From Lophium mytilinum (lineage: Eukaryota), in the NCBI GenBank assembly GCA_010093605.1, contig MU004196.1:1448606-1512605 (forward strand): a DNA stretch of 64,000 nt, read 5' to 3'. The notes beneath the pieces were generated by a model that was not told where the DNA came from, made no database searches, and saw only the letters and a list, made by a program, of their open reading frames with translations. A program made the position numbers and the translations under genes. Of the stretch, positions 28,358 to 64,000 are shown one piece after another. How positions within the stretch are numbered: position 1 is the first letter of the stretch; each line of letters begins with the position of its first letter.

Positions 28358-28574
28358 TACATTGAAAGGTCACAAGCCTGGGCACACTGGCATGCCGCTG
28401 CTTGGGGTACCCCCACAGGGGCTCGAAGGCTTAAGAGCGATGTTAAGCTTCAAGCAGTGTAGATTAGACTACCTCTCAACTGATTGCCTGCTCAGCAGCC
28501 AGGCTAGCCCCGACAGTAGTGTTGAGTGGGCAAGTTGGAGCCGAGTATGCCCAGACATGTGGCCTAGAACTACA
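28358..28574 (+). mobile_element. MITE family A copy
   Basis: TIR-like ends (cacaagcctgggcacac ... tgcccagacatgtggcctagaactaca) and conserved core (gcagtgtagattagactacctct, gcctgctcagcagccaggct). Confidence 0.82.
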
Positions 28575-32988: not shown

Positions 32989-33069
32989 GCGACGCAAAGC
33001 AGGCACCTACGGCGCGTAAATCTCAGATGTGTATTCTTGTCGCCCTAGATGCAACCATATAGACTCATT

Positions 33070-33259
33070 GCAGCTTAGCTCCAACTTGCCCACTTAACAC
33101 CATGTGGGGTGTATCCTGGCTGCTGAGCAGCCAATTAGTGAAGAGGTAGTCAAATGTGCACCGCTTGAACCTCAACATGACCTTTGAATCTTCGAAATCT
33201 GATAGGGATACCCTAAACTGTGTCGATCCGGTGTCCCAAACTTGTGCCCTGTCACTGTA
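33070..33259 (-). mobile_element. MITE family A copy (one end degenerate)
   Basis: ctccaacttgcccacttaacacca...ggctgctgagcagcc...cccaaacttgtgccctgtcactgta. Confidence 0.75.
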
Positions 33260-34073
33260 GGATATGTTGCAGTACTCCGACGATGAGCAAAACTCTTAGC
33301 GGCTACACTCACGTCCTTGAAATCAACTATATGTAGACAAATACCAAGCGCTCTAAGTCTGGAGTGCATGCTTTCTTCGACAGTTCCCTTTGAAGCATGA
33401 AACAGACCACGTGACTTTGTCGACCAACCAGACCGCGAAGAAATCTCGAATGCCTAACCAATCAGGACAATCCCGTCACCTTTGAACATCCTCATCCCTC
33501 AAACGCTCTCTTCCCTCCCTACATATTGAACCGCTGCATAACCAGCACGACTCCCCTCAATACCTCCAAATTCCCAACACCCATCCAACAAAGCGCATAC
33601 ATTCCCCATCCCCTCGAAAGGCTGACAAGCGCGTTTCAGCGGGACCCTGCCTTTAAGCGCTCAGCCACAGCCGGGAGGCCCACAAAGGCACAAAGGCCGG
33701 CGATTGGGCCCAGCTCTTTGTGCCCTTGTGTCAGCCACGCGCCCAGGGATATTTTTAGATTTCTATGTCATGATCTGCATCAGGTAAACGACCTGCGTTT
33801 GGGCGCAGCGTTCAGCTCCGCTTACACCACTCTCTTTTGCTTCAACACTCTCTCGTTCTCTTGCGCCCTTTGCACACTCTCTTATTGTTGTATTTTTCGT
33901 TACGTCGTGATAAAGTGTTAAGATACCCTGGACCTGTTTGACCAGGAAGCGTTGCGCGGCCAACCTCCGCAGGAAAGGCATCGTTGAGCACTCCGTGAGC
34001 TGTAGAATATAGAGCATAGCTCCAGCTTCAACCTCGATCCACCTTAGAAGAAACCCACATCACAACAACCAAG

Positions 34074-35681: not shown

Positions 35682-38394
35682 ATGGACTTCCTATGGGCCC
35701 TCCTGAGCCTCTGCATCTTCCTCGCCTCATCAGCCGTGCTCCGCAGAGCGCTAGAAAAGAGGATCCTATACCGATACTCTCCACTCCGGCCAGAACCTAG
35801 CAGCATCCGCCTACTACGCCTTCTACCGCACGCCGACGAGACCGCCGTCATTCAATGCGAGCTCTTCGACTACTCGCTACAAAGCTCAAGCCAACGAACG
35901 CACCAGTATGAAGCCCTGTCTTATGTATGGGGTAGTCCGGAGGGGAAGTTGCCTATCATGATAGGCGGATGTGCGTTCGACGTTACGGTTAATCTCCATG
36001 CGGCGCTTTTAAGGATGAGGAATCATGCTATGGAGCGAGTGTTGTGGGTAGATGCGATTTGCATTGATCAGGACAATCTAAAAGAGAAGGAGGATCAGAT
36101 TCAGTTCATGGCAGAGATTTTTGGACAGGCGAGACAGGTTGTTGTTTGGCTTGGAGAGGCGGCAGAGGATAGTGATTTGGCGCTTGAGCAGATACGCGTT
36201 ATTGGGAGCAGAGTGTCTGGAGATTATCCCTTAGAGCTAGCGGATACGTGGAGCGACAACGACGAGTCAGGAGATTCTCTAGACGACGACGGAGGGTCGG
36301 TAGATCCTCTAAACGACGACCCAATGCAGCAAGCGATTCTTGCGCTGTTGGAACGGCCGTGGTTTCGGCGCATTTGGGTAAGAGTATATATATTCCGCAA
36401 AGCTCGTACAGTCTGCTAAAGGGTTAAATTAGATACTTCAGGAGGTTGCCGCAGCTCGACACATCTTGGTCATGTGTGGTGCCGCAGAGATCGACGGACA
36501 CGGCTTCTGCTTGGGCGTGGATTTGCTGGAGGGCATCTTCGGAACCCGCGCAGACTTACATAGTCTGATCCGTTCGGTGACTTACTTGATGAAGGGGGCG
36601 ATATTCAGGCCTGTTATGAGCAAGGCAAGCAGTACTTCGCGAGCCATATGTCCACTAGGCGAGCTGATGGATATGTACCATTCGCACGAGGCTACCAAGC
36701 GCCATGATAAGGTGTATGCGTTGCTTGGTATGAGCTCTGATGATCACAGCAAAGCAAATCTATCGCCAAACTACGGAGTTCCATGGGAGGACCTCTTGCA
36801 GCGACTAGTCAAGTTTCTTCTCCCTGGGACGATTTCCGTGGAGACTTGGGGCGATCAGGGGATCGCTTCAATCAGGATTAAGGGCTGCATGCTGGGTTAT
36901 GTGTCCTCTACAGAAAGGAGTGTTATTTCTGATGGCAGAAGGAGTGTAGAGGTAGTTTGCAAGAACATATCGGGAGAACTTGGAGATATCAAAGTGTCAA
37001 AGGCCAACTGGAATCTCAAACTCTCGGCAACACCCGTTCAAAAAGGAGATCTCATCTGCCTTCTTCAGGGAGCTTCAAAGCCTACTATCATAAGAGTGTG
37101 TAAAGACTGTTTTACCATCATCATCATGATTACAGTCTCTCCTCCGGAAATCATACAAAGTAAGTGGAACGAGTTTGATGCCAATTGGCCAAAGAATTTG
37201 GAGTCCAAAAAATTGTCCGCATGCGATTTTCTCCTCGTTTGGGACTGGGAAACCCCTCTGCTAGGATTGCAAGATCTAGGAAAATCCGATACCTTGATCC
37301 AGACAGATAAGTGGGTATCACAGCCCCCAAATACGATGCTAGAGGGCCACTTGGACCAACTAGCTAGAACATGGAGTGTTGCACGGATATTGGACGACTT
37401 GGGGAAGCAAGAAAAGGCAGAAGAGAGGCTTCAAGAAGTTGCAGAGGGCATTGCAACAGAAATTGGGCAAGAAGGTTTGTATCCACACACATTACTAAAT
37501 TATCAAAGCAAGACGCTGATTTTGAGAATTCCAGATAACAACTACGACGCCGTAAGGAACATAATACGGGAGAGGAATAATATTGATCTATACTTTGGGG
37601 ACAGTCAATACAGAAAGACGATGCTATTAAGAGCGGCAGGAAGCGGGCGCAAGGGTGTTGTTAAGCTTCTGCTTGAGACGGGCAAGGTCAATGTTGATGC
37701 AATGAAGACGGCGCTGCTACGGGCGGCATCTTACGGGCGCGAGACTATTGTGAAGGTGCTGCTTTTGACAGACAAGTTCACCTTCGCTGATGAGGGGCGG
37801 GTGCTGAGAACCGCGGCGTTTTGGGGGCGGGAGGCCGTTATTAAGCTACTGCTTGAGACGAGCGAAGTTAATCTTGATTCTAAGGATAATGAGGGACAGA
37901 CGGCGCTATCACTGGCGGCGAGTTCGGGGCAGACGGCGGTTGTTAAGCTGCTGCTTGAGACAGGCAAGGTTGATATCGANNNNNNNNNNNNNNNNNNNNN
38001 NNNNGGACAGACGGCGCTATCACTGGCGGCGAGTTCGGGGCAGACGGCGGTTGTTAAGCTGCTGCTTGAGACAGGCAAGGTTGATATCGACTTGAAGGAT
38101 AATGACGGACGGACGGCGCTATCATGGGCGGCAGAAAGGGGCCCCGAGGCTGTTGTTAAGCTGCTACTTGGGACCGGCAAAGTTGACGTTAATTCAAAGG
38201 GTACTAATAGGAGGACGGCGCTATTGTTTGCGGTAGAAGGGGTACACACAGCCGTTGTCAAGCTGCTGCTTGAGACAGGTAAGGTTGATGTTGAACTCGA
38301 GGATAATGACGGACGGACGGCGCTAGTTAGGGCGAAAGAGAAGGGACATGAGGCCGTGGTACAGCTGCTGGAGTCGTATCGTAAGCTCTTTTAG
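35682..38394 (+). CDS. HET domain + ankyrin-repeat protein (NLR-like effector-repeat architecture), contains assembly gap
   Basis: HET: 'IRLLRL', 'YEALSYVWG', 'LWVDAICIDQ', 'RPWFRRIW|ILQE' (intron 36379-36432), 'DKVYALLGM'; C-terminal repeats 'GQTALSLAA..G..AVVKLLLETGKVD'. Confidence 0.9.
37980..38004. other. Assembly gap (25 N) within ankyrin repeats
   Basis: Run of n characters. Confidence 0.99.
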
Positions 38395-42988: not shown

Positions 42989-45007
42989 CTACATCAACCC
43001 CCCCAACACCACCTTCCCCACCCCCGCCATCTCCCCCCTCTGCCCCACCCGACTCGCATCCTCAAACTCCCTCACCACGCCCGCCAGAATAATCTTCCTA
43101 ACCCTCGCATCCGCCTTCGCGAACAAATCGCCCACCACGGGCGAGCAGCTCTCCGGCCCACTCACCAAGCTCATCATCTTCGTGTACGCATCAATCAGCA
43201 CATCGCACAGCGTCGCGAACGTCTCGAAGAAGTCTGGGTCGAACGGCAGCGAAGGGGTGAGGAGGTGCGTGTACGTTTCATTCGGCAGCAGGTCATCACC
43301 CGTGGTTATAGGTAAGGAGGAGGAGGTGGTGGAATCCGGGGGCGTGGAGGCGTTGGAGATGCTGTGGTCGAGAGCGGGGAAGCCCATGTCTGTGGCGGCG
43401 GAGCTGCGGCGGCCTTTGGAGGAGCCGACGCCGACGTGGGTTGCTTTGCGGAACATTTGCGGGATGCGGCCGCGCGAGAGGGAGGAGGGGGTGGCGCCGT
43501 CCGGGGGGTGGATGGATTGGTAGGATTCGAATTCGATGAGGAGAGCGTTGAGGGCGCGGAGGTAGTCCGAAGGGGAGTGTGGGTGCAGGTCGAGGATGGT
43601 GGGACTTAAGGTGGCAATAAAGTTAGCAAATCTTTCAAAACTCGAGCAAGGAAACTAATAGTAATGACAGGTTATGCTGCGTAAAACACTCCTTCAGGGA
43701 ATTCCAAGACACCACTGTCTACTTTGCCCACTTAACACCACTGCTGGGGGGTAGCCTGACTGCTGATCAGGCAATCAGTTAAGAGGCAGTCTAATTTGCA
43801 CTGCTTGAACTTTGACATCGCCCTTTAGTCTTCAAAACCTGTGAGGGCACCCCAAGCAGTGGCGTACCAGTGGACAGTGGTTGCCTCGGAATACTCTCTG
43901 AGTAGATTTTCAAACAGACATATTGCTGGGAAATTTGTTATCTATATTGGGGGCTTACTTACAGGGAGAAGCCGAGGAGGAGGTAGTTTGTGGCGCGGCG
44001 GGCGAGTTTGGGTGGGGAGAAGTAGGAGAGGCGTGCGAGGTCGGGTTTAGAGAAGAGGAGGGTGTTGAACCAGTATATGCGGCCTTCGTGGCTGTGGAAA
44101 TGCGTTAGTGTGGGATTTAGGGTCGGAGGGTATTGAGATATTTGAGCCAGGGGATCGCGGATTGCGAGGCCGAGCGGTGGAGGAAATTTGGATTGGGGAG
44201 GATTGAGGAGAGAATGCGGCGGTGTATTGGGTGAATGAGAGGTGAAATTTATGAATATTGAAGATTTCAAACATACGCTTTCCGAAGATAGTCCAAGGTA
44301 GATATCCTCTTCGACGCCATCTCGTGTATATGCTGGAATACCACACTCGGATTATTTGACCCATTGCCCGCAGGCCCAATCTGTATAGGAGCCGGGGGTC
44401 CAAGACTTCCATAACTCTGCGCAAAGGTCTGCTGTTGCTGCTGCAGCTGCTTCTGCGAGGCCGGGTATCGTAGGGGGACAGCCATGCCGAAGGGTGTCTT
44501 GGGCTGGTCCACGGCAGACAATGGCGATTTTGAGTATGGTTGTCCCCCCCCTAGACCCACCGCTAGCGAGTCTAACGCCTTCACGTTTTCGGCACTCTTT
44601 TGCTTTCCCCTCGAGAAGGTTGATATCGACAGAGCTGGGCGCGAGGCATTGGACGCAGGAGCCTTCTCCGGCGAAAGGGACAGGGTGGTTGCCAGAGTGG
44701 CGGTCGAGGGCGTCTTCCGGTGGGAAGACGTAGAGCCCGAAGAGCGCGGCGAGGTGGTGCGCAGCGAGGCGGACCGTCGCAGCGTCGAGCCGAGCTCCGT
44801 CACCGAGCTGGAGATGCTGTGACGCGACGACGACTTGCGATGGCGGCGGGGCGGTGGTGGTGAAGCAATTGGGAACTGCGGCACTGGCGGCGGGCTCTCT
44901 GCGGTCTGCGGGGGCGAGGTGGTGTATTTGGCGGTGGGCGTTTGATTCCCTTTGGTGCGAAAAGCCCTGGCGAACAGTCCGCTGGGCTGGGACGGGGTCG
45001 TGGACAT
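42989..45007 (-). CDS. Conserved fungal hypothetical protein, 3 exons
   Basis: Spliced 'KRISTLDYLRKA|HEGRIYWFNT...LLLGFSL|PTILDL...YLRALNALLIEFE...LPFDPDFFETFATLCDVLIDAY'; S/P-rich N-terminus. Confidence 0.82.
43720..43875 (-). mobile_element. Truncated MITE family A copy inside intron 2 of the 42989-45007 gene
   Basis: ttgcccacttaacaccactg...gtagcctgactgctgatcaggcaatcagttaagaggcagtctaatttgcactgcttgaa...ccccaagcagtggcgtaccagtg. Confidence 0.8.
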
Positions 45008-50130: not shown

Positions 50131-50811
50131 TCATTCCTGCTCCTCCAAGATAGCTGGCAAGAGGGGAACAGTGGACCTCGGGAGGTCGGTGGTCGGCTCG
50201 AGACTGATGATTGTGTCGTATAGTTCGTCTGAATACTCGGAGCGTAGTTCTCGTGAGACCGTCATCCAGCAGTTGCCCCATTCGACTCGCACCGAGCACG
50301 TTGGAGCTGGCGACATCTCCTTGCGTCCACCAGCCGGGTGTATGTGCGTATGAACTCTTCCAAAGACCCCAAAAACACCAAGTTCCTCGTCCTCGATATC
50401 TTTCTTATACCAAGTCGTCGTCAATCCGCCCTCTTGGTTGTATTCCATGTTAGGTAGAGGGTTGTAGTCGTCGCTCGAGGGGCTCCTCGGAAAACCAGCT
50501 CGTTGGTCGAAGGTCAAGAATTGGCGCTGTGAAGGCGAGAATTGGCGTTCTAAGCAAATCGAACTGCCGCTTGCAGTAGATGCTACAGCGCCAGTGGGAA
50601 AGCGGACGTCGATCTGGTCGTCGTCTTCGTGCTGGACGGTGAAGAGTACAAGCTTGGGATCTCCATCTGCGATTCTTGTGAAAGACCCTTCGAAAAGCTG
50701 CCTCGTGTACTTTGCGGGTCGACCCAAGTATCCGAAGTTGATGATGCATGGATTCGGTGCCGCTTTTGAGTTGGCGGGATTGTCTTGGTCATCTTGGTCT
50801 TGGTCGAGCAT
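50131..50811 (-). CDS. Hypothetical protein; distant RING-less member of the array ('IDVRFPTGAVA')
   Basis: 226-aa ATG ORF co-oriented with the array; weak motif similarity only. Confidence 0.55.
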   Translation of the reverse strand: MLDQDQDDQDNPANSKAAPNPCIINFGYLGRPAKYTRQLFEGSFTRIADGDPKLVLFTVQHEDDDQIDVRFPTGAVASTASGSSICLERQFSPSQRQFLTFDQRAGFPRSPSSDDYNPLPNMEYNQEGGLTTTWYKKDIEDEELGVFGVFGRVHTHIHPAGGRKEMSPAPTCSVRVEWGNCWMTVSRELRSEYSDELYDTIISLEPTTDLPRSTVPLLPAILEEQE

Positions 50812-51063
50812 GATTCCGGTTGAATGAGGGGATTTTGGTCCGCCCCTTGCTGTTGCAAATAATGAGAGGGGGTAAGGTGATTACTTGATGTGTTGAGCTC
50901 CCAAAAAACGCAGAGTGAGCAATGGAAAGCAAATAAAGGTGACATTCAGGGCTCTGGAGTGCCCCATGCACGCTAGTCTCGGCAGTCCGCTTGAGCTCGG
51001 GAGGGTCAGCGCCCCGGTGAATGTAAGGCTAAGAGGGGGGTGGGAGGCATATTGAACCCCGCA

Positions 51064-51278
51064 TACAGGAGCTTCCGCCCTTCGTTCGCCATTGTTAGGG
51101 GTACCTCCCAGGAATTCAAAGTACCCCTAATGGCAAGTATTGACCAGTGCAAACTAGACTGCCTCTTGACTAGATAGCCTCTAAGCAGCTAGGCTACCCC
51201 TTACAGTGGTGGCGAGGGAGCAAGATTCGGGCCAAGCAGTGGCAAATCCGTATGCTCAGACCTATGATCTAGTACTGT
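51064..51278 (+). mobile_element. MITE family A copy
   Basis: cagtgcaaactagactgcctcttgact...taggctaccccttacagtggtg...tatgctcagacctatgatctagtactgt. Confidence 0.72.
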
Positions 51279-51527
51279 TTTCTAGCAATATGTTATTATC
51301 AAATCATGTCACCAACTCTTCAAGGCGGGAATTTCAGAGGTAATGGTTTTATTAGTAAAGGTGTAGTGGACATCGAGGTCCCAGAATTCGCTTTGGAGCT
51401 CCTACTTCGTAGACTTTGCGTGGACTGGTTTGGCATAATGAACCGAGAGCTAAGCGTTGCCGTAGCTAAGTAAACACTATGTCATCATTGGCAAAGAACC
51501 ATCCAACTGCGCGGGGTATCCGCCAGT

Positions 51528-52256
51528 CTATCCTTGAATCCAAGCCCTGCAATTGGGGCATCGAGCCCCTGAAGCACTTGAAGGATGCCCGATCACCGCT
51601 AGTATGCATTTCTCCCCAAAGTAGTGCCCACAGCGAAGCCGAACAGCAACATGATCCTCGTCGTAATGCTCTAAGCAAATAGCGCAGTCATCAACACGTT
51701 TGAAAAGTTCGGCCTGTTGTGTTGGTTCGTTGCCCTCTTTGTCAACGCAGTGGATCAGCAAATGGTCTTCCAATCCCGCAATGACAATCATGTTTCGCCC
51801 TTTATGCTCAAGAACTAAGGTGGGATTGCCCTTGGCGTAGACAACATTCAGATAGTCGTTTCCGTGGGCCCTGGAAGGCGTGATATGAAACACCTCATTT
51901 GATCCCACCCAGGTGTGCTCGAGTAGCGCTCGCATTTCCTCAGTATCAGACTGAGCAAAGCCAACGTCCTTGTCGCCGCGGGCCAACTTGACTTTTGTAG
52001 TCAAGAGGTCCACCCCGTTCAGTGGCGTCACAGGCGGTTCACCGAACCAGAGCCGTGCGGTTACATCCTTACGAATGAAGACCCACACTTGCTGGGGTCG
52101 GCGGGGAGCTCTCCGAACTGTTATGGCGTTGTCTAGGACCCTTTTCGTCTGGAAGCCCACCCGGCCATCCCTAACGTCAGGCAGAGCCACGTTTTGGGTG
52201 CCATGACTGTCTGACATCATGATGTGGCCAGGGCTTTCGCTCATATTCGACGACAT
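51528..52256 (-). CDS. RING finger protein (putative E3 ubiquitin ligase)
   Basis: C-terminal CAICLEHYDEDHVAVRLRCGHYFGEKC...CPNCR. Confidence 0.85.
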   Translation of the reverse strand: MSSNMSESPGHIMMSDSHGTQNVALPDVRDGRVGFQTKRVLDNAITVRRAPRRPQQVWVFIRKDVTARLWFGEPPVTPLNGVDLLTTKVKLARGDKDVGFAQSDTEEMRALLEHTWVGSNEVFHITPSRAHGNDYLNVVYAKGNPTLVLEHKGRNMIVIAGLEDHLLIHCVDKEGNEPTQQAELFKRVDDCAICLEHYDEDHVAVRLRCGHYFGEKCILAVIGHPSSASGARCPNCRAWIQG

Positions 52257-52676
52257 GGTTGGTAGATGAATACACAAGAAAAGCAAACTGGTTTGGATGA
52301 AGGTGTAAAGTTAGAGTGCGAGCTGGGCAAGGAAGGGTTCTTATGCTCTTGAGGTCAAGCACTTGTACTTACTTCACGTACTTACTTCACCCAGCGGCAA
52401 CAGTCTCATTCAAGATCAACAATAACATTGTGCTTACTCGTCGCCCCAGAAGGTGAGGTAGTGGACAGACGAGATCTCGATATTGTTATGACAGAACAAA
52501 AACTTGAGCTCGAATAGTGAGCGGCAAGACCGAAGAAAACAGAATGCTCTACGCTATTCATCGTCTACCATATGAACACACCGGCATTCTTTGAGTTCAG
52601 AGTCCATAGAGTCGGTTACGACTTGGCGAGAATAGTAGACGTCAACTCAAATAATGACAAATACGCCAAGTCTCTC

Positions 52677-53477
52677 CTAGGTCCGTGAATTCTTCGGCCG
52701 TCGAGTGCCCTGGAACATCGGAGTCCGGCAGATAGGACAAAGGCTTGAAGTTGCAGTTTCTACGAGTTCTTTCAGACAATTCTTTCCATAAACGTGTCCG
52801 CATGGAACACGATATGGACGGTGATCTTTATCCCAGTCCTGATAACAAATAGCGCATTGATCTAGCTCAGTAGCAAAATCATCCACCTTAATCTCTCGAG
52901 TCCACTCTAGCGATACATCCCGAGTGTTTTGAGTCCCCGGAACCGGAAGCGAAATCGTTTCACGCAGTTGAATACGATCTTCCGGGCTGACTACAATCAT
53001 GACAGCTGTATCTCTGTACTGGAAGACAACGGTTGGATTGCCAGTGACCAGAATGACCCTCATATGGCCCCATTTATAAACGGGATATGCCCCCAATTGG
53101 GCCTCGGGGTCCAAAATCCAGCCATGGAATATCAGAGAGTCCACTGTATGTGGGTTGTCATGTGCAATGATAACCGGGTCAGACATTGCACTCCCAGGTT
53201 GGCGTGTCATACGAATGCTTGGCTCGCCAGGGCCTGTGCTGACGACTCTTTCCATAGTGAATTCAACTCGTATGTCGGCGTACTTCTCAATCAAGAGCCC
53301 GGCACTACCAAGGTAATGAAGGAACATTCCACGGTCGTCTTCGCCTGGGAGCTCACGGTTCCGAACACTGAGAGCCCTCGAGGTGAGGGTCCGTGTGACG
53401 ATGAAGGCGCGGCCGGGAATGCGGGTTTGCTGAGTTAGTAACTCTAGAGCTGGGCTGGACTCCGCTCGTGGATTCAT
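52677..53477 (-). CDS. RING finger protein (putative E3 ubiquitin ligase)
   Basis: CAICYQDWDKDHRPYRVPCGHVYGKNC...CPICR. Confidence 0.85.
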   Translation of the reverse strand: MNPRAESSPALELLTQQTRIPGRAFIVTRTLTSRALSVRNRELPGEDDRGMFLHYLGSAGLLIEKYADIRVEFTMERVVSTGPGEPSIRMTRQPGSAMSDPVIIAHDNPHTVDSLIFHGWILDPEAQLGAYPVYKWGHMRVILVTGNPTVVFQYRDTAVMIVVSPEDRIQLRETISLPVPGTQNTRDVSLEWTREIKVDDFATELDQCAICYQDWDKDHRPYRVPCGHVYGKNCLKELVETATSSLCPICRTPMFQGTRRPKNSRT

Positions 53478-53905
53478 CCTGAGGGTTTTATGCTTCAAGT
53501 AATATTTATGTCGTTGCCGCGCAAGTCAGATCCTGTGGTGGCGGAAGATGTGTTGACGTCCTTGTTGTGGGGATGAGAGATAAGTTCGAAGAGATGACGA
53601 AGCGGGAGCACTTATATGTGAGAATTGAGGCGACTAGTGAAACGAGAGCTGTCGTTGCAGGTGAATGCTCGAGGAGGTGAGCTAATACTGAAATGACTAC
53701 ACATTCGCTGCCTGCATACTAGACTATGCAACGAACCGTAGGGTGAATAAGAGGTCTCGAGCCACTTGACTAACATGGTTTCCCACTACAAACGAGCACT
53801 AGCGCTAGTGTCGCTATTGATCTGGTAGCCGTAAATCGAAGGCCCTGGAACGATTCAACGGTATCGGAAAGGCTACCTATGAAGGCATAATTAGAGGCAG
53901 GTGTC

Positions 53906-54136
53906 CACGCGGGGCATGAAAAAAGTGGCACACTTACCCACATTCTACCTCCTATGCACCTGTCTGCTGCTGTTGTGGTGCTTCGATGCATTTGAAGAAG
54001 ATACGAATAAGCTGATTACTATTAGCTTTGGTAATCTGAAAACTTATCAAAATACTCCAAGCAGTGGCAGACAGGTGTATATTTGACCGTAAAAGACAGA
54101 TCTTAATGAGTGTGCCTCTTTTTTATGACCAGGGTG
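53906..54136 (-). mobile_element. MITE family B, internally deleted copy in opposite orientation
   Basis: CACGCGGGGCATGAAAAAAGTGGCACACT ... GTGTGCCTCTTTTTTATGACCAGGGTG; flanks GTGTC / GCGTT. Confidence 0.75.
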
Positions 54137-54826
54137 GCGTTAAAACCTGGACATTTCAGGGGATGTATGGACTTATAAGGCCTAAAGATGCGTTTTGTGT
54201 ATGGCGCTCTGCAAATATTAGGCTAGGCTTGAAAGGATGTGAATGCACCACTCGAACAGTTGATGGATTGGAAACTACCAGCCATCATTGCTGGAGATTC
54301 TAGGATTTCAACGAACCGAAAGATTTCATCGTTCTTGTCACATACTACTGAGTTCTAGTTTACAATATCTAGTGCATAATAGAAGGTGGCGGAGATATAT
54401 TCAGAGCTCAAGAAAACATAAGAAATCCTACCGCAGACTGTAAATTGCGTTTTTTTTGCATGGCCAGTAAACGCAGCTACTAAGCCATTAAATCAAATCT
54501 CGGAGAAGGAAGTGGCGGGGCAGGGGCACTGGCTCACGATAGGATCACTAGGTGAAAATCATCACAGTGGCATATAGAAAAGCTCCTTGGGGTAATTGTA
54601 TGTATTGAGATGTCTGAAACATTGCAGTGCACTATACAGAGAAGAAAGGCAACGTAAACTTGAACAGGTGGCTGTTTTCGTCTTTTGCATCCATACGACT
54701 TTTCGTTGAAGCTGGGAACCAATCAGGCAGTCTAGGCTGAGAAATTTGAACTACAGCGCGCATGAATACGGTGACAACCAGGAGAATATCTCCAGCAGTA
54801 TCCTCTGAAATCAAGATCAGGAAACC

Positions 54827-55747
54827 TTAACCTCGAACGGCCTGGCGCTCCTTCTTTTTGAAGAGTTGGACACGGCAGTTCGGGCAAGTGTTGGAGGCAG
54901 CGAACCGGTGATTGAACATGACCGAAAGGCACTCCTCTCCAAAAATATGACCACAAGCATTTAATTTGACCGCGCGGTGGCCAACACCATACTGAGCATC
55001 CTGGCAGATGCTGCACTCGGGAAGATCTTTTTCGTCGGTAGGTTTGGCGAGCTCATCGACATTGGTGCGAGGACCGACGAACTCGAGAGGAACATCCTCC
55101 AAAGCCCCAGTTGGCATTTCCCAGATTTCCTCCTCAGAAGGGGAGTCATCGGGCGTCGCAGCTTGAGCCGCCCGGTGGTTTCCACCGCGAAGTCGACGCC
55201 AAACATTGCTGAAGCGCCGATGTCGAGCATGCTCATTTTGGCCGCTGGTGTCTTGGAGCTCGGTCTCGTCCTCGGGCTCGAGGCATTCCAGAGCGATCAC
55301 GCCATTCGTACGGACGCGGACTGATTGCTCGCCAAACTCAAAGACCGTAGTAGCTGGGCCCTTGGTGACCATACGCTTGTCAGTATCGTTCACGCGCTCA
55401 AGCCGAAAGTCCCGGAGGCCGGCATATGGGTTCCGACCATGGGGGAATTGGAGTCGTTCTCGAGCACGAGTCGCTGGAAGAATTGTCCGAACGTCGCGGG
55501 GGACAGTCGCTTCTCCATACCAACGCTTGACTATGGCTTCGCGGGGAAACAGAATATGGAGATCGCCATGTTGAGCCGCGTCGCCGTCGGCATGGATCAC
55601 AAGATTGCCATACGTGCAAGTACCTTCCACATGGAGATTCTTCATCACTCCACCGGTAAGTGCTTCGGATGGTCGAAGGATGATGTTTGCCGCGGGGGGA
55701 CGAGTGCTGTCGTCGACAACATTAAGAGTAGAAGTAGAAGCCGCCAT
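54827..55747 (-). CDS. RING finger protein with N-terminal array domain
   Basis: CSICQDAQYGVGHRAVKLNACGHIFGEEC...CPNCR; N-terminal 'LHILFPREAIV...GPATTVFEF'. Confidence 0.87.
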   Translation of the reverse strand: MAASTSTLNVVDDSTRPPAANIILRPSEALTGGVMKNLHVEGTCTYGNLVIHADGDAAQHGDLHILFPREAIVKRWYGEATVPRDVRTILPATRARERLQFPHGRNPYAGLRDFRLERVNDTDKRMVTKGPATTVFEFGEQSVRVRTNGVIALECLEPEDETELQDTSGQNEHARHRRFSNVWRRLRGGNHRAAQAATPDDSPSEEEIWEMPTGALEDVPLEFVGPRTNVDELAKPTDEKDLPECSICQDAQYGVGHRAVKLNACGHIFGEECLSVMFNHRFAASNTCPNCRVQLFKKKERQAVRG

Positions 55748-56102
55748 GGTGGAGTCTGTATTAGATACTTGTAAGTTCTGTTGAGGGTACTGGTGTTGGT
55801 GTGATAGAAAAGGATTTGGTGGGTGTGGTGTGCTTGACTGAGGGAAGTGATAATGAGGACGGACACGAGCAGAGAGACCTGGCTTTATGCACTCCTCAGG
55901 GGGTGAAAGTGCCCCCATAAGGTGAATTGAAGCGTCACAATGTCTTTCTCGGAGCAGTAACCATGCTGAGAGCACCTGCAGTGAACGTCATGGTGCATCT
56001 TTCCGATTGTACAATGTATAGTCGGACATTTTACGGGTGGCAGGTAAGATGAGGTAGCTTCTACACTATACGTTGTGCAGACGTGTGATTGAGACGAAGA
56101 GC

Positions 56103-56332
56103 TACAGTGACAAGCCACAAGTCTGGTCACACTGGTACGCCACTGATTGGGGTACCCCAACAAAGTTTTGAGGACTTAAAGGTGATTTTAACCTTCAAGC
56201 AGTGTGTATTAGACTGCCTCTTAAGCACTTGCCTGCTCAGCAGCCAGGCTACCCGAACAGTGGTGTTGAGTTGGCAAATTTGAGCCGAGATATAATGAGT
56301 CCATGTGCCCAGATTTGTGGCCTAGGACTGTG
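56103..56332 (+). mobile_element. MITE family A copy (well preserved)
   Basis: TACAGTGACAAGCCACAAGTCTGGTCACAC ... GTGCCCAGATTTGTGGCCTAGGACTGTG. Confidence 0.85.
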
Positions 56333-56617
56333 AGAACGTTGACGTGTACGTAGCATGAAGCTTAAGGCATGTAGAACTGCATTGCGAAGACGAAATATAC
56401 GGGGATAGGCCGCAAGAGAAGACAAAAGCAAAGGCAAATGGTCATAGGGAACTTGCACAAGGTACGTGAAGTGGAACGAGAAGAAGATTCAATTTAGCTA
56501 AGTCTATGCTTGCGAACTGTCCACATGAGCTTGGAGACAATTTAGAGCTCGAGATATGGGAGAAGATTGAGACGGGGAAGACCACTCGACGCATAGCGAT
56601 TCTCTCTTGAGACCCCT

Positions 56618-57163
56618 CTATGGCGAGGGAGGTGAGAAGAAAGTGTTGGGCCAGTCGTGGGGGAAAGGCGGCGATGATGAGGATGCGGAAGATGGCAACA
56701 CCGGCCGAGATTCGCGCTCCGCGAAAAGTTCGACGCGGCAAAATGGGCATCGGTTCAACACTGGATCGGTGGTACTTGCCATCAGCTTCAAGCACTCATC
56801 GCCGAACACGTGCTTGCATGCCTTTAGAACCATCGGGAGATGGCCATTGCCATAGTCTTCCAGACAGATGCTGCATCTATCGAGGCCGTTGGCCACCTCT
56901 TCTGGTGAACAAGATCTGGCGAAGGTGTTGATATCGATGGGTTCATCCACATACTCCCGCTCTACGTCTTCCAGTTCCTCGGGAACCTCATCTTCGTCAT
57001 CTGTAAGGGACGGAGCGGGACCCTGCATATCAAGGGTGATCTCGCTGTGAGGGCCAAAACGATCGATGTCATCACACCTCATTTCATACTCGTCCGAGAT
57101 CTCGGAATTGGGGCCTAACACGGTGACGATAGCTGAGGATCGGGGCTCAATGTTTCCTTCCAT
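56618..57163 (-). CDS. RING finger protein (short N-terminus)
   Basis: CSICLEDYGNGHLPMVLKACKHVFGDEC...CPFCR. Confidence 0.85.
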   Translation of the reverse strand: MEGNIEPRSSAIVTVLGPNSEISDEYEMRCDDIDRFGPHSEITLDMQGPAPSLTDDEDEVPEELEDVEREYVDEPIDINTFARSCSPEEVANGLDRCSICLEDYGNGHLPMVLKACKHVFGDECLKLMASTTDPVLNRCPFCRVELFAERESRPVLPSSASSSSPPFPHDWPNTFFSPPSP

Positions 57164-57800
57164 GACTTTGTTAGTGTTAGTGAAGAAGAGAACGAGATTG
57201 AAAGACGGAAAGTAGAGAAATTTGGAGATGTTCATATGTACAAAAATACAATGTTTGACTGTAAATTATATGTATATACATATGGTCAGATTGTAATGAC
57301 TTGATATGGCATCCTTGGATTACGATAGTTGTACCATTTACATTGAAAATTATGCCGCAAAGCTATTATATGTCTCGCCGCAAGATGTTACATCGTATGA
57401 CGACATTAATTCAAAGTAACTCTGATACGCGTCGATCAGAAGACGCGGTATAGTAGAGAAAGTGAAAGATGTGCGGAGATGACAAGCTGCGATAGTGGAT
57501 AATGTAGATAGCTAATTCAAAACTGAAAATCATATAGCGGTAAACGCGGATTGTTACATGTAACAGTGCATAAAAGTCACCAGAATTTCAGACTTTACAA
57601 TAGAGGTTATGAGGATGTGGATGTTAAAGTGATTTATTGGAAAATATCGAAGGAAAGAAACTGGCCTATGAGCTTGGGTCAATTTAGTGAGCTCTTAGGG
57701 AAGACAATGAGAGATCTTGGACCTCAATGGATCCTGAGTGCGAAGCAAAAGCTCTAGAGCTGAAGCTTAGTTCTTACTTGGCGAGATAGGAACCATTGAC

Positions 57801-58733
57801 TTAGTAGAGATCGTGAAGACACACGAGCCTATCTACAAGATGCTGCTCGTGTTCAGTCAGAACACCCTCTAGCGGCAACTCCATGAGCCGGCGCGCCTCC
57901 ATTTCAAGGACTGTGAGCGCGAAGCCTGAAGCTCTTGCTGTATAATCTTCGGTCTTGGGCGCCACATCCTTGGTAGGCACGTCGTGGTCATCTCGATAGA
58001 TGGGCACACCGTCGACCTCTACGTTAGGGATCGGTGTATCGCCATGTGGTGTCGGGTGGCGGTCTTCGACTTTCCGTCGAACCATGACCCGGTTCACCGA
58101 CCGCTTGAAACGGCCCTATCGCACGGTACCTGTAGGACGTGGGCGTTGGACCAAAGCTGGGTTATTGGTGTTTTGGGGCTCATCGATATTCCCCGGCTGC
58201 ATGGCCCCATTATCCCTTTGGAATAAGAGAGTCATGGCTCTGCGCAAAGATTCTTGCCGTTCTAGTGGTACACTCACCCTCAACGGTATGATCATCCACG
58301 GCGCGCGTAGCTTGATCGTGACGCCATCCATTTGGATCACCAAAGCTGGGGCGGCCATCGGTATCATGTACCGCCGACCTTCGGGAGATTCCTCGATACT
58401 CCAAGCGGCATTTTGGTCATCCGTGCCACTGTCGGATTCTGGATCACGAACAATAGCGTAAATATCGCTATCAATTGGCACGTTGCCCGGCATGATGCGG
58501 GCATCGGCGTCATGTGGGAAGAGGATTTCAACCTCTTTTTCGGACCAAGCTGGGCCCGCGTGTGCTCTGATGACAAGAGCTGGCCCGACAAGGCTATCTC
58601 CGGGGCGGAATTCGTACATGACGGTCTGGGCCCCGGAAGAGATGGAGACTGTTCCAACAACGGGAATATCTCGGTCAGGAATGATGTCCTTTGGATGATA
58701 CCTGAAAAGTTCCAGGAGATTCTGATAAACCAT
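57801..58733 (-). pseudogene. RING-less array paralogue interrupted by a single in-frame TAG at 58116-58118
   Basis: ORFs 58116-58733 and 57801-58097 share a frame; both halves align with the 59500-60390 protein. Confidence 0.78.
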
Positions 58734-59499
58734 GAAAAAGATTTTCTTTTTTAAACAAGTCTGAATTTACCGGTTGGCATGGTTGAAGTCTCGAGGTGTG
58801 GTTTTTGGGCTTCTTCGATCTTACGGATGTGGTTGAAGTTCTGATATGTTTGTGGCGAGCTTTTTAGAGCTTGCACGAAACTTCGCGAGTGTTTGTTGGC
58901 AAAATTTGAAGGACATATACGACCCAGGAGCTGTCTAAGTGTACGAGCTTCGCAGGAAATGTGAAGTTACATCTCGAAAAGAGGCATTGTATAAGAATGT
59001 TAGAATAGTATAGATCAGGGAACCACGTGTGAGTTAATATGTGCACGTACAATGATAAGGTAAGGTCTGAAAAGAAAATTGAGCTCCGCGTGAGTTCAGC
59101 GCAAGCCACATGGTGATATGGTTCAGAAGAAGACGCTCGATCATAGCTGTGAACGTCTGTCGAGAGGAAAGAATCGAGAATATGGTGTCACCGTCTACCT
59201 GCCACAAACGGAAAAGGGTCACCTAGCGGAGGAGAGAAAGCAGAGAACGATACTCAACGAGATGCTGCTCAAAGAAATAGGTCAATGTGAGAGGAAATAA
59301 TGAGTTGTTTGAATTATAGAGGAAGGAAGCATCAGATGTTGCAGTATAGAAGGGCATTTGAGTGCGAGAAGAATTTATTTGAGATTACTTTTGAAGAATG
59401 ACAGACCTAAGAGCTAGCGTCCATCATGAGGCCTGAGAAGAACCAAAGCTGGACAGCCGAAGCTCACTTGTGGGATGATAGCGTGGTAGATTCATTCAC

Positions 59500-60390
59500 T
59501 TAGAAGAGGCCGTGAAGATACACGAACCGATCTACGAGCCGCTGCTCATGCTCAGCAAGGGGACCGTTGATTGGCAAACTCAACAACTGGCGCGCTTCTA
59601 GTTCAAGTTCTGACGCGCCGAATTTTGCGAGTTTTGTAGGAGTATCTTGATTTATGAGCGCCGCATCTTTGTCAGGCACTTCCCAATCATCCCAGTCAAC
59701 TGGCGCGTCATGAAGCTCCACCCTGTGTATCGCTGCGATTTTAGCAGGCGAAGGAAGTGACTTCGGCATGACTTTTACGGTGGCATCCTGCATGGCGATT
59801 TTTGTCTCGCTCTGACTATCACGATGGAGTACAAAAGCCACGCCACGGAGAGAATCGGCTTCGCGCTCGATTGGAATAATTATCCTGCGAAGGAACATCA
59901 TCCACGGGGCGCGGATGGTGACTGTCATGTATGGACAATCGATACGAAGGGTGGGTATTGCCATTGGTATCATATGACGACGAAACGGTGGCCTGCGTTT
60001 CGGATCGGAGACGTCTTCTACAGTCCAAGCAGTATTGGAGTCATCCAAGTACCACTTCGCGTCTGGATTCCGGATGATAGCGTAGATAGTCTCGGGCACA
60101 CCTACCATAGCCGGTTCCATACGAGTTATTGCATTGCTTGGGAAGAGGACCTTCACCTCCTTCCCAGACCATCGTGGACCATCCGGCGCTTTGATCCGGA
60201 GGCCGGGCCCAGTGAGAGTGTCGCCTGGGCGAAGCTCGTAGCTTACTGCCGGCCCTCCCGAGGAGATAGTAACTGTCGCGACGACGGAAAGCTTGTCGCT
60301 GGGGTAATATTCGGGCGATTTGAAGTTGAAGAGCGCGAGGAGACCCATGCTAGAAGTGGCAGTAGAAATGTTGTCAGCTTGTCCGAGCAT
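59500..60390 (-). CDS. RING-less array protein (uncharacterised N-terminal domain + helical C-terminal motif)
   Basis: 296-aa ORF; 'VATVTISSGGPAVSYELRPGD..GP', 'EVKVLFPSNA', tail 'ELEARQLLSLPINGPLAEHEQRLVDRFVYLHGLF*'. Confidence 0.78.
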   Translation of the reverse strand: MLGQADNISTATSSMGLLALFNFKSPEYYPSDKLSVVATVTISSGGPAVSYELRPGDTLTGPGLRIKAPDGPRWSGKEVKVLFPSNAITRMEPAMVGVPETIYAIIRNPDAKWYLDDSNTAWTVEDVSDPKRRPPFRRHMIPMAIPTLRIDCPYMTVTIRAPWMMFLRRIIIPIEREADSLRGVAFVLHRDSQSETKIAMQDATVKVMPKSLPSPAKIAAIHRVELHDAPVDWDDWEVPDKDAALINQDTPTKLAKFGASELELEARQLLSLPINGPLAEHEQRLVDRFVYLHGLF

Positions 60391-60818
60391 AGGCAGTATT
60401 CCAGGGGCTTTTTGGGAGGAAATTTTCCAAATTTTTCAGAGACAACATGGGCTTAAATGTACGAATATAGCAGCAATGTTCACTCATATCGACCTAGAAC
60501 AATAGCGCACTGTACCAGAGTGTTGGAATGTACATGAGGAAACAATCATCGATTGTACGTGTGAGTACAATATTGAGATAAAGTCTGGAATGAGATGGTA
60601 GCTTCGTCCAGTTTGGCGCAGGCTGCAAAGGAAACGGCGCGACCGACTGCCAGCCACAAGCGGAGAAAGCGTTGTTAGGTTTTGGTATCAGGAAAGACGT
60701 ATACTAGTACTGATGGCGAGGTCACGTTAAAGACATGAATAAAGTCGTATGGGGAAGAATATATTGTTGTACATTGGTTGAAAAGAAGGGAAGCATGCCC
60801 AACTCACCAGCTGTGAGC

Positions 60819-61430
60819 CTAGGGCGCGAGAATTGGCCGCTTTTTCCTTTTCCGAAATAGGACCACGCGACAATTTGGGCACGTGTTGATGCAGGTGTTT
60901 GGCCCGTTGGCCATCCCATCCAGGCAAGTTCGGCAGAAGACATGTCCGCAAGCCTTTAAAACCACGTGTGAATGGTCATTGGCGGGATCATGGTTCTCCA
61001 GGCACAGCGTGCACATCTCGGGGAGATTCTCACCGGGGGAGAACTCATCGGCAATATCGTCGATTACGATACGAGGACCGATGAACTCAAACTGGACGTC
61101 TTCGTAGAGGGGCTCGAACTCGTCCTCGTCCCCCTCTTCATCCGAAGACCCGACCAAAAATTCAGAAGGACGCCGTGAACCATAATCCAAGGGAAGGCTC
61201 GATAAGTCCCCTTCCACGTCATCGTAGAAATCCCATTCCGAAGACTGGTTGAACACCTGCCTCTGTTGAGATGGGACCGGCGTCAACGGTCGCCACGTGC
61301 TGGGTCTCCGGCGGTGATCGTGATCTCTCGCCAGCCGACGGTGCTCCACAGTTGTTGTTGTTATGTACTGGGTGGATGTATCCTCCGAGTCATATTCCTC
61401 TTCGTCAGAATAACGGAAAGGAGGTGCCAT
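60819..61430 (-). CDS. RING finger protein (C3HC4 type), disordered acidic N-terminus
   Basis: 'EDVQFEFIGPR' linker; CTLCLENHD..HSHVVLKACGHVFCRTC...CPNCR. Confidence 0.85.
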   Translation of the reverse strand: MAPPFRYSDEEEYDSEDTSTQYITTTTVEHRRLARDHDHRRRPSTWRPLTPVPSQQRQVFNQSSEWDFYDDVEGDLSSLPLDYGSRRPSEFLVGSSDEEGDEDEFEPLYEDVQFEFIGPRIVIDDIADEFSPGENLPEMCTLCLENHDPANDHSHVVLKACGHVFCRTCLDGMANGPNTCINTCPNCRVVLFRKRKKRPILAP

Positions 61431-61808
61431 TCTAGAAATGAAAGCTTTTTTGGAAGCGTTCGAGAGGCGTTTTGTTTTGTGATGTTGTGTAAGCGGATTC
61501 CTTGCTGGGAACTGTGTTGAGAGATGAAGCCAGCAACATTGCTTATATACAAAATTATTGTAAAGATATACAAGCAACGTTGAACATTGCAACAATGAAG
61601 GCTGCGAGAGAGCTGTGCATACACAGTGTCGGTATCGTGGAACTGCATTGTACATGTCGATGCAGACGCCGATTCGATGGCGATATGGGCCATCTTTCGA
61701 GAAGCCTGTGAGGTCTCAACGAGCGGATCATTTTCTCGTGGTAGAGTCGAAAACCAGGCGTTCTCGGTCTTCCGGACTCCCTCACTTCCTTGATGGCGCA
61801 CGTCATGC

Positions 61809-62041
61809 TACAGTGATAGGCCGTAAGTCTAAGCACACTGGTTCGCCACTGCTAGGGGCACCTCCCAACGGTTTGAGAAGATTTATAGGCAATTACCAGT
61901 CTTAAGCCGTGCAGATTAGACTGCCTCTTGACTAGTTAGCTGCTTAGCGGCTAGACTTACTCCCTACAATGGTGTCAAGTAAGCAACATTGAAGCCAAGC
62001 GGTGACAAAAACGTGGGCCCAGACTTATGGCGTAGTACTTA
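61809..62041 (+). mobile_element. MITE family A copy abutting the stop codon of the 62044-62568 gene
   Basis: TACAGTGATAGGCCGTAAGTCTAAGCACAC ... GGGCCCAGACTTATGGCGTAGTACTTA. Confidence 0.8.
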
Positions 62042-62043
62042 CC

Positions 62044-62568
62044 TTACGTGGTAGCGTTTTCTTTAATCTTGCTCTGACCCGTCTTCTCCGGTTTCGGAAA
62101 AATCGTCCACCTTCTCAAGCAAACCTCCCCTTCCGCTTCAATCTCAACCATGACATTGTTCCATTCAATCAGCACCGACGGAAAGTCTCTCGAGAATATG
62201 CGGTACTGTCGCTTTGGCAGCGCTTGCAATACACACTCCGGGCTCTGGTCCATCTCGCCCCTAGCTTTCGACATAGCTATGCGATGACTCGTGCCCTCAT
62301 CATGCATGACCGACACAACATCCTCGGATAATTCGATATCCGAAGGTTCTATGTAAACAGTTGCATCGCGCGGAAAATCGACGTCGATAGAAGGATCAGT
62401 AGGCAGCTGGAGGCGCGGGCACTGGAAGAGGAATGCGTCGTGGGGACCCCAGAAGTGGATGCGACCGGGGTACATCTCAAAGCGCTCTGTTGGACCGCCG
62501 GATAAGATACTTACGGTCGCTACGCTGGCAGGTCGAGGTTGTAGCTCCGGACGTTGATGGCTAGGCAT
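62044..62568 (-). CDS. Stand-alone array domain protein (no RING)
   Basis: 174-aa ORF; 'VATVSILSGGPTERFEMYPG...GP', 'IDVDFPRDATV', 'FPSVLIEW'. Confidence 0.68.
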   Translation of the reverse strand: MPSHQRPELQPRPASVATVSILSGGPTERFEMYPGRIHFWGPHDAFLFQCPRLQLPTDPSIDVDFPRDATVYIEPSDIELSEDVVSVMHDEGTSHRIAMSKARGEMDQSPECVLQALPKRQYRIFSRDFPSVLIEWNNVMVEIEAEGEVCLRRWTIFPKPEKTGQSKIKENATT

Positions 62569-62850
62569 TGCGATGAATGGTTAGGTTCGAAGTTATGAGG
62601 ATGAAGATTGGGGCAAAAATATCCGCGGAGAATGCGCTGTGGCGAAGTAAGGGTTGAGATATACATGTTCAATATAGGGATCACGAGATCTGGTGTGATG
62701 TCTTGGCGCCAGTGCGTGAGACCAAATTTTGTGACACAAAGAGAGAAAACAAACGCTAGTCACACGGAACGGGAGTTAGAAGTAGTCGGAAGAGACAAAA
62801 TTGCGTTCTTTGTGGCACGGGTGTTTGTGTGTGGAAGCAAGACAGAGACT

Positions 62851-63082
62851 TACAGTGACTGGCTATGAGCATGTGCACACCAGTTTGGCACCGCTCGGGG
62901 TACCCCCATAAAGTCCTGAGCTTCTAGGCGCGAAGTCAAGTTCCAAGCAGTGGGAATTAGACTGCTACTTGACTCACTACCTAATAATTGGCTGGGCTGC
63001 TCCTCTCAGTGGTGTCAGCTGAGCAAGATTGAAGCGGAACAGTAATCAATCTTTGTGTCCAGGCTCATGGCCTAGTAATGTA
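62851..63082 (+). mobile_element. MITE family A copy (diverged)
   Basis: TACAGTGACTGGCTATGAG ... GTGTCCAGGCTCATGGCCTAGTAATGTA; core gcagtgggaattagactgct. Confidence 0.75.
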
Positions 63083-63319
63083 GCTCAGTGTCTCGCCCAG
63101 TTCTCGAAGCAAATACGTGGGGAATCAAAGCATCCTGTTCGGCCCCTTTCTTCGGAGACAGAAGTTTCCAGGGCGTTCGATGTGGCTTTGTAGGGATACT
63201 GAGTCTCTTTGCGGTCGATAATTTTAGGTGTCAGCGAGCTAGGTGGTCCCCAAGGTAACATATGTGCATTTCGGCTAAGAATTAAGGAGGATAACAGAAA
63301 CCAAACCAAATCCTCAATA

Positions 63320-64000
63320 TTACTCGGGCTTTTGGCCATAACAGACCCAACTAGAACCACATTAGCGTAAGCTCCCTTCATATAGGTAGAGCGTACTCAC
63401 AAGTCCAACAGCGCATGCAAACCTTTGCTTTTCAACTCCGTCCGAACTTTCCCGCATAGAACCTCAACCTCCTCAGGCGACCATTTCAAGATTTGGGTCA
63501 TCAGTCGGAATGAAAAGCCTTCTAATCCATCGATGATCTGGCAAAGGTTGAAAAGGCCAATTTCCTTTTGTTTAGGGTCCTTCGCCCATGGTCCAATAGG
63601 GAGCTTATGTCGCTTCGCAACGACGTTGATGAAACCCGCATCTTTCATCCAGCCTTCAAGTAGCGGACCCGGATTCGGTTCGCGGCCGTTTTGAGCGGAT
63701 AGGTCGATTAGGATCTGGTCCCAGCGGGCAACTTCGTGCTTTTCGGTGAGTGAGCCGTCTTCGGAGTGGTATTTGAGGTTCCAGTCTTGGAATTCGACGA
63801 AGCCGCCCGGGGCAACGTTGCTGTGATGGCGTTAGCGGCGACGGTAGAGTAACGAATTAGAAGATGCGGTGCTACATACTCGAACGCACTTTTGATTAGC
63901 TTTGGCCAATCCTGAATCGCGCAACATAGATATCTGGCAAAGATGAAGTCGAAAGGTGCGGTGTAAGTCCACGTGCTTTCGAGGTCGTCTACTTCGAATT
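63320..64000 (-). CDS. SAM-dependent methyltransferase (LaeA-like/Methyltransf_23), 5' part outside window
   Basis: 'FEVDDLESTWTY..PFDFIFAR', 'APGGFVEFQD', 'DAGFINV', 'LPIGPWAKDPKQKEIG', 'WSPEEVEV'; last exon 'WVCYGQKPE*'. Confidence 0.9.

Follow-up and report, generated by a model that had tools for sequence, protein, structure and literature searches.

What kind of protein system is encoded by nine small neighbouring genes of which five end in a RING finger and four do not? The question is raised by an array at positions 50131-62568 of a 64,000-nucleotide stretch of Lophium mytilinum contig MU004196.1 (this whole stretch is the window below), for which a sequence-only reading had proposed RING E3 ligases and RING-less paralogues sharing a domain. 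Our analysis supports a tandem family in which small RING proteins stand beside RING-less paralogues and an N-terminal domain recurs in both, except that membership of two of the genes, 50811 and 57163, is not borne out. On balance we lean towards a tandem family, restricted to one lineage (Mytilinidiales-type Dothideomycetes), of modular RING E3 ligases and paralogues that have no catalytic part, to judge function from protein architecture.

The array and its RING fingers

The open reading frame (ORF) listing of the window contains the nine co-oriented minus-strand genes that had been described at 50131-62568. Each ORF encodes 174-363 residues, the spacers between them measure 420-1349 bp, and all but one (58733) run without interruption. 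The genes, named here by their upper coordinate, are as follows.

50131-50811, minus strand: g50811, a 226-residue ORF without a RING or any Pfam match; deposited protein P0012
51528-52256, minus strand: g52256, 242 residues; C-type N-domain and a RING with Gly at metal ligand 5
52677-53477, minus strand: g53477, 266 residues; C-type N-domain, RDVSLEW linker and a RING with Gly at ligand 5
54827-55747 (ORF to 55918), minus strand: g55747, 306 residues; B-type N-domain, disordered linker, EDVPLEF and a RING with Gly at ligand 5
56618-57163 (ORF to 57235), minus strand: g57163, 181 residues; short N-terminal remnant, EDVEREY linker and a RING with Gly at ligand 5
57801-58733, minus strand: g58733, an A-type domain at 58116-58733 (205 residues), an in-frame TAG at 58116-58118 and a 94-residue helical-tail ORF at 57801-58085
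59500-60390, minus strand: g60390, 296 residues (282 in the deposited form, P0001); A-type domain, disordered stretch and conserved two-helix tail
60819-61400 (ORF to 61655), minus strand: g61400, RING-only; acidic N terminus, EDVQFEF linker and a full C3HC4 RING
62044-62568, minus strand: g62568, 174 residues; A-type domain only; deposited protein P0006

The start of g61400 at 61400 is our choice, and neither this start nor 61655 matches a deposited protein. Exact single-ORF translations of 50811, 55747, 58733 and 62568, together with the 282-residue form of 60390, are present among the deposited proteins (P0003 is the exact 55747 protein and P0005 the 205-residue form of 58733). Exact translations of 52256, 53477, 57163, 61655 and the 58085 tail ORF are absent from that set. 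Searching the window with all 16 family proteins (tblastn, with rows within 5 nt of the gene bounds filtered out) returned no significant family copy outside the nine genes; the three strong rows that passed the filter lie on genes 60390, 61655 and 62568 themselves. The upstream regions of the nine genes have no 8-mer in common to more than three of them.

Pfam RING models match 52256, 53477, 55918/55747, 57235/57163 and 61655 and do not match 50811, 58733, 60390 or 62568, in agreement with the proposed division into five RING genes and four without. Four of the five exceed the zf-RING_2 (PF13639) cut-off of 27.3 bits (52256, 39.9; 53477, 45.6; 55918/55747, 34.1; 57235/57163, 36.8). The RING of 61655 scores just under it with this model (26.4 bits) and passes with zf-C3HC4 (PF00097; 21.4 against a cut-off of 21). 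Relationships among RING genes are also evident by blastp (57163 versus 61655, E = 9e-22; 57163 versus 55918, E = 3e-18). A degenerate RING in 50811, hinted at by a MAFFT alignment, was dropped when a hidden Markov model (HMM) of the RING plus linker found no match to it at E <= 10.

The RING of 61655 has all eight zinc ligands in C3HC4 arrangement, whereas the other four have seven. In 52256, 53477, 55747 and 57163, and in P0004, the orthologue of 55747 from Mytilinidion resinicola, the pattern is C-x2-C-x14-16-C-x-H-x2-G-x2-C-x12-15-C-x2-C, with Gly at metal ligand 5. These RINGs may be impaired, judging by their ligands. All five window RINGs also have an invariant His in the loop between ligands 2 and 3, six to seven residues before ligand 3, which is kept in P0004 and might replace the missing ligand 5.

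Directly before the RING, alignment shows the motif (E/R)DVxxE(F/Y/W) in 53477, 55747, 57163 and 61655, that is, in four RING genes, as many as had been claimed. In an AlphaFold2 (AF2) model of g55747 the EDVxxEF linker is placed within the RING unit with a predicted local distance difference test (pLDDT) score of about 85. Comparison of this model with known structures by VIA-align gave 13 chains at Z >= 5 for the RING part, all with RING or RING-type zinc-finger titles; the best is the Deltex 2 RING (Z 7.5, root-mean-square deviation (rmsd) 2.6, 72 residues aligned). A retained form of the linker motif in the helical tail of the RING-less genes was considered and dropped (hhalign P 0.11).

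A shared N-terminal domain

The sequence-only reading had described a recurring N-terminal pattern in both RING and RING-less genes. For the RING-less genes 58733, 60390 and 62568 homology is certain: all-vs-all blastp aligns a beta-rich domain of about 150 residues between 58733 and 60390 (41% identity, E = 1e-48), and between 62568 and each of them (E = 1.6e-9 to 58733, E = 1.8e-6 to 60390). Among the RING genes, 52256 and 53477 match each other over 151 residues, extending past the RING (blastp, E = 2e-15). We grouped the sequences into three profile families: A, the 58733/60390/62568 core; B, 55747 with its orthologue P0004; and C, 53477, P0011 (its M. resinicola counterpart) and 52256. 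Searched against the 661 window ORFs, the family A HMM reaches 55747 at E = 0.025 only, and no other RING gene.

Comparison between profiles by hhalign links A to B (P 1.6e-4, probability 50%, 103 co-linear columns) and B to C (P 0.005 over 100 columns); A versus C, and 50811 versus every family, are not significant. The A-B score of 34.8 compares with 12.8 +/- 2.4 for column-shuffled profiles, and the B-C score of 25.1 with 13.3 +/- 2.1. Neither score was reached by any of 60 shuffles, from which they stand about 9 and 5.6 standard deviations apart, and both also exceed the reversed control. The A-C score (18.0 versus 13.0 +/- 2.7) was reached by five of the 60 shuffles, leaving family A with no direct link to 53477/52256. 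In a joint alignment the motifs hxhLFPxxA and RxhhxxxxPThhhxh are in register across the families, the second with a strand and an acidic turn behind it. The A-B and B-C links argue for a domain common to six genes through the chain A-B-C, the A-C link being indirect only. The recurring pattern was thus borne out by blastp for 58733, 60390 and 62568 and at profile level for 55747 and then 53477/52256.

For the three remaining genes the picture differs. Neither 50811 nor 57163 has a significant match to any family profile, and their inclusion in the domain family is not supported. Even so, 50811 is the top non-member when a combined N-domain HMM is run against the same 661 ORFs (E = 1.3, with two co-linear motif matches), and could be a copy of the domain that has diverged very far. 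Residues 29-63 of 57163 match residues 9-43 of g62568 at E = 0.045 only (blastp), a remnant of about 35 residues at most. The RING gene 61655 lacks the N-domain.

The description of the domain as uncharacterised stands. No Pfam family matches it in ten ORFs (E <= 1) or in any of eight family members (E <= 10), and a profile search of Protein Data Bank (PDB) sequences found no match to it. A literature search on M. resinicola and RING, the only combination searched, returned no prior description of the family.

Relatives, transcription and signs of decay

The family is very small. An exhaustive scan of 1.84 billion representative proteins with the family A HMMER profile returned seven at E <= 1e-3: three window proteins, P0002 and P0007 from M. 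resinicola, and P0008 and P0009 from metagenomes. The window genes and these four relatives match the profile at E values from 5.5e-9 to 7.7e-86. A fuller member of the metagenome P0008 cluster, P0010, is a relative of about 30% identity with the same architecture of domain plus tail. For the N-terminal regions of 55747 and 53477, word-based searches, which may miss distant relatives, found one M. resinicola orthologue each, P0004 and P0011.

The best protein matches of the array are in Mytilinidion resinicola, where four orthologues (KAF2801462-KAF2801465, that is P0002, P0007, P0004 and P0011) have consecutive accessions and lie on one contig of 340,728 bp. They correspond, in this order, to 60390, 58733, 55747 and 53477 of the window, and the conserved gene order argues that the interleaved array is older than the split of the two species. 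The orthologues are 64-69% identical to the window proteins (P0004 65% to g55747, P0011 65% to g53477); P0002 is shorter at both ends. P0011 (KAF2801465) tracks g53477 as far as the first RING Cys pair and then continues into unrelated sequence, which suggests a frameshift or a gene-model error in the M. resinicola genome.

One window gene is interrupted. The tail ORF of 58733 (57801-58085) reads in the same frame past the TAG and matches the g60390 tail (blastp, E = 2e-20), and P0007, of 320 residues, reads through a conserved peptide where 58733 has the stop. Because of these two observations 58733 appears to be a domain-plus-tail gene cut by a premature stop or an assembly error, and would have no native 'domain only' form. 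A conserved tail motif recurs in g60390, the 58085 ORF, P0007 and the metagenome protein P0010. Of the modular architectures proposed for the array, domain plus RING, RING only and domain plus tail are all found, as is a domain-only protein in 62568; 58733, which had also been taken as domain only, leaves that class.

Two members are transcribed. A 1752-nt contig assembled from run X1 matches the window without mismatch over 62586-62042 and 61962-60756, skipping 79 nt bounded on the minus strand by GT..AG, and covers both 62568 and 61655/61400. This run is labelled 'RNA?' and contains 17% of the sampled words. A second spliced contig from it confirms a 50-nt GT..AG intron (63351-63400) in the neighbouring methyltransferase-like gene (63248-63500, minus strand), and run X1 therefore contains RNA-derived sequence. 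The other seven array genes have no cover in this run, which is no indication that they are silent. The possibility that the genes might be unexpressed relics is answered in this way for 62568 and 61655, the two genes to which the RNA cover is limited. One contig is no proof that the two share one transcript.

The genes had been called apparently intronless. The skipped segment places a 79-nt intron one base after the stop codon of 62568, and no fusion of ORFs results from it. A 62568-61655 fusion protein made from the observed RNA was rejected: the two reading frames coincide once the intron is removed, but they are separated by ten in-frame stops, one of which is the TAA of 62568 itself.

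The intron lies inside a copy of a dispersed repeat of about 230 bp that was found by self-blastn. Copies are 67-81% identical to one another and have terminal inverted repeats of 24-28 nt starting TACAGT, resembling a miniature inverted-repeat transposable element (MITE) of the Tc1/mariner kind. The intron and the copies are:

61964-62042, minus strand: 79-nt intron, GTAAGT..TTGTAG, beginning one base past the TAA of g62568 and inside a MITE-like repeat copy
51084-51276, 56101-56331, 61807-62039 and 62840-63082: MITE-like repeat copies within the array
53906-54075: fragment of a MITE-like repeat within the array
25918-26153, 28358-28545, 33056-33260 and 43723-43872: MITE-like repeat copies elsewhere in the window

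The end of the copy at 61807-62039 abuts the TAA of g62568 and supplies the GTAAGT donor of the intron; a transposon remnant has therefore become an intron of the 3' untranslated region of this gene. Short pieces of the repeat occur in many contigs of run X1.

These observations bear on the possibility that the array is mostly evolutionary debris, consisting of young lineage-specific duplicates of one small RING gene that decay by truncation, domain loss and transposon insertion, with RING-less paralogues that have no function of their own. The stop codon of 58733 at a position that P0007 reads through, the departure of P0011 from the RING pattern, the near-complete loss of the domain from 57163, MITE-like copies in four or five of the array spacers (they are found in other intergenic regions as well), the four ORF translations absent among deposited proteins and a family of only seven proteins in 1.84 billion are all consistent with such decay. 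However, eight of nine ORFs remain uninterrupted, the orthologues retain 64-69% identity, gene order, RING ligands and tail motif across species, P0010 preserves the domain-plus-tail architecture at about 30% identity, and two members are transcribed and spliced. We therefore regard debris as an unlikely account of the array as a whole, if the one that deserves most attention among the alternatives.

The rest of the window resembles an ordinary ascomycete accessory region, with a heterokaryon incompatibility (HET) domain gene, two ankyrin genes, a kinase, an AMP-binding enzyme, a short-chain dehydrogenase/reductase (SDR), a flavin monooxygenase and a Zn-cluster transcription factor. The first four lie upstream of the array and are typical of the content of fungal accessory regions:

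6598-8346, minus strand: HET domain gene
22729-23958: kinase
26341-28095 and 36433-37977: ankyrin-repeat genes

A run of 25 N at 37980-38004, within an ankyrin-repeat ORF, marks an assembly gap.

Predicted fold, function and known systems

Structural models offer a view of the domain. The AF2 model of g60390 was built from eight aligned sequences (mean pLDDT 66.9), with block means of 66-92 over residues 21-190. It contains 12 strands between residues 22 and 170 and a helix at 174-193, followed by a disordered stretch (residues 194-257, pLDDT < 50) and tail helices at 261-269 and 280-295. The g55747 model (12 sequences, mean pLDDT 70.5) repeats this succession of strands and helix and continues with a disordered linker and a linker-RING unit that is modelled well. 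In these AF2 models the N-domain is predicted to be a beta-sandwich. The expectation of a shared fold is borne out to the extent that both models have the same strands followed by a helix; the g55747 alignment included families A and C, so the two models are not independent, and searches of the PDB with Foldseek gave no match at E <= 1e-3 for either (the top rows are other folds with template modelling (TM) scores of about 0.1-0.2). An ESM Atlas search with P0001 and P0003 residues 1-200 yielded no usable feature match; the models there are poor (pLDDT 0.39 and 0.42) and TM scores were at most 0.34.

Comparison of the g60390 model with 48,161 chains by VIA-align found none at Z >= 5. Among the 50 matches listed, 20 are FHA domains and eight are SMAD-MH2/IRF association domains. 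The best is the MEK1 FHA domain (5yyz_A; Z 4.1, rmsd 3.1, 74 residues aligned), alongside the Pellino2 FHA domain (3egb; Z 4.0, 91 aligned); Smad7, MAD, SMAD4, IRF4, IRF3 and IRF9 follow at Z 3.4-3.7. For the g55747 model, the four listed matches that fall wholly in the N-domain are the Smad7 MH2 domain (Z 4.4, 93 aligned) and three FHA domains (Z 4.0-4.1). A Z of about 4 is below the level that VIA-align itself calls informative. The SMAD/FHA-like sandwich is a lead and no finding, and on these models the fold of the N-domain need not be entirely new.

Taken at face value, the structural matches would make the N-domain a genuine, if strongly diverged, FHA domain. The RING genes would then encode E3 ligases directed at phosphothreonine, of the Dma1/CHFR/RNF8 type, and the RING-less proteins would compete with them by binding phospho-peptides. 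The concentration of FHA and MH2 chains in both sets of matches (28 of 50 for g60390, all four for g55747) favours this idea. Against it stand the low Z values, the other folds returned by Foldseek and the failure of FHA (PF00498) and MH2 profiles to match any of ten ORFs (E <= 1) or eight family members (E <= 10), with no FHA domain among the PDB sequence profile matches. FHA domains are eleven-stranded beta-sandwiches whose phosphothreonine-binding loops are marked by a conserved Gly-Arg pair, Ser-x-x-His and an Asn. The columns that are invariant in the family alignments, namely F, A, P, R, I, P, I and R, do not include these loop residues, and inspection of the alignments found no conserved Ser-x-x-His or Gly-Arg pair. 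A genuine FHA domain is, on this evidence, improbable.

Improbable too is an interleaving of two unrelated small families, the RING genes and 58733/60390/62568, with an N-terminal likeness due to chance or composition: the faint reach of the family A profile into 55747 alone, the absence of P0003 and P0004 from the exhaustive search at E <= 1e-3, the lack of a significant A-C match and the A-B probability of just 50% would fit it, but the A-B and B-C scores surpass every shuffle and the reversed control, the aligned stretches, about 100 columns long, are co-linear and contain the same motifs, and the genes are adjacent, co-oriented and interleaved likewise in M. resinicola.

We return to a tandem family of modular ligases and non-catalytic paralogues. 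Its ancestral unit would have been a small cytosolic protein with an N-terminal beta-sandwich of about 150 residues, a disordered acidic/basic linker, a conserved EDVxxEF strand and a C-terminal RING; the most economical account is that tandem duplication with domain loss or swap produced the array from it. On the basis of their architecture 52256, 53477 and 55747 are predicted single-chain E3 ubiquitin ligases, in which the beta-sandwich would bind a substrate or partner and the RING would recruit E2~ubiquitin. The RING-less 60390, 58733 and the metagenome relative would have kept the binding domain and carry the two-helix tail instead of a RING, and could compete for the same ligands or serve as adaptors for them, in either case without catalysis. 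The adjoining 62568 (domain only) and 61400 (RING only), present in one RNA contig, are a possible split version of the ancestral unit. By the same reasoning 57163 would have lost most of the domain and 58733 would have been truncated recently by its stop codon.

Several of the results above weigh against this interpretation. Four of five RINGs lack the fifth zinc ligand; family A has no direct profile link to 53477/52256; the domain finds no Foldseek match, and its best VIA-align Z of 4.1-4.4 is a weak fold match. The in-frame stop in 58733 is a sign of decay, P0011 loses the RING sequence midway, and repeats have inserted between the genes. Four of the RING genes (52256, 53477, 57163 and 61655) have no exact counterpart among deposited proteins, RNA covers two genes only, and the contig that joins these two may not be a single transcript.

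A bolder version, which we consider a long shot, would see in the array a ubiquitination circuit complete in itself, with a private recognition domain of FHA/MH2-like type at its base. RING members would tag a target, or one another, for degradation, the RING-less tail-bearing members would be dedicated antagonists, the system would evolve under conflict in its HET- and ankyrin-rich accessory region, and the ligand-5 Gly and extra His would form a variant zinc site.

The specificity of RING E3 ligases comes from their non-RING domains, and here the RING is paired with a domain that has no curated family and is seen in very few proteins worldwide. One array sets natural 'RING-swapped' and split versions side by side. 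Should the domain turn out to be a diverged binder of FHA/MH2 type, the array would amount to a natural experiment on a small scale in how tandem duplication gives rise to ligase, decoy and split forms. The conserved variant with Gly at ligand 5 would be a handy case for asking whether a RING works without its fifth ligand. At present the finding is a descriptive one from a poorly studied fungus.

Among known systems, the FHA-RING ligases, Dma1 and Dma2 of yeast and CHFR and RNF8 of humans, and Pellino, which combines an FHA domain with a RING-like domain, are closest in layout: a small single chain with an N-terminal beta-sandwich module, a linker and a C-terminal RING. The FHA-RING ligases are single, widely conserved genes, whereas the array is tandem, confined to one fungal lineage, accompanied by RING-less paralogues and without an FHA sequence match. 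The linker-RING unit of g55747 (residues ~225-299) has its best structural matches in Deltex, RNF12, RNF13, RNF38 and Arkadia-type RINGs with an N-terminal extension (Z 5.8-7.5); these differ from it in their other domains, in having no Gly at ligand 5 and in sequence (19-29% identity).

Gly at ligand 5 is what the array has in common with the RING-G proteins of plants, whose pattern is C-x2-C-x16-C-x1-H-x2-G-x2-C-x13-C-x2-C (PMC5240574). The array loops of x14-16 and x12-15 compare with x16 and x13 in plants. RING-G is described as a singleton in each genome, with one in Arabidopsis and one in B. rapa (PMC5240574), whereas in the array the Gly form is the family majority and is accompanied by the invariant extra His; the likeness lies in the ligand pattern. 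The nearest relatives are the uncharacterised orthologues KAF2801462-KAF2801465 of M. resinicola, which share the gene order and in which P0007 is uninterrupted, P0002 shortened and P0011 without the full RING pattern. Lineage-specific expansions of small RING ligases that include variant paralogues are a familiar kind of system; the domain on which this one is built is unnamed and very narrowly distributed.

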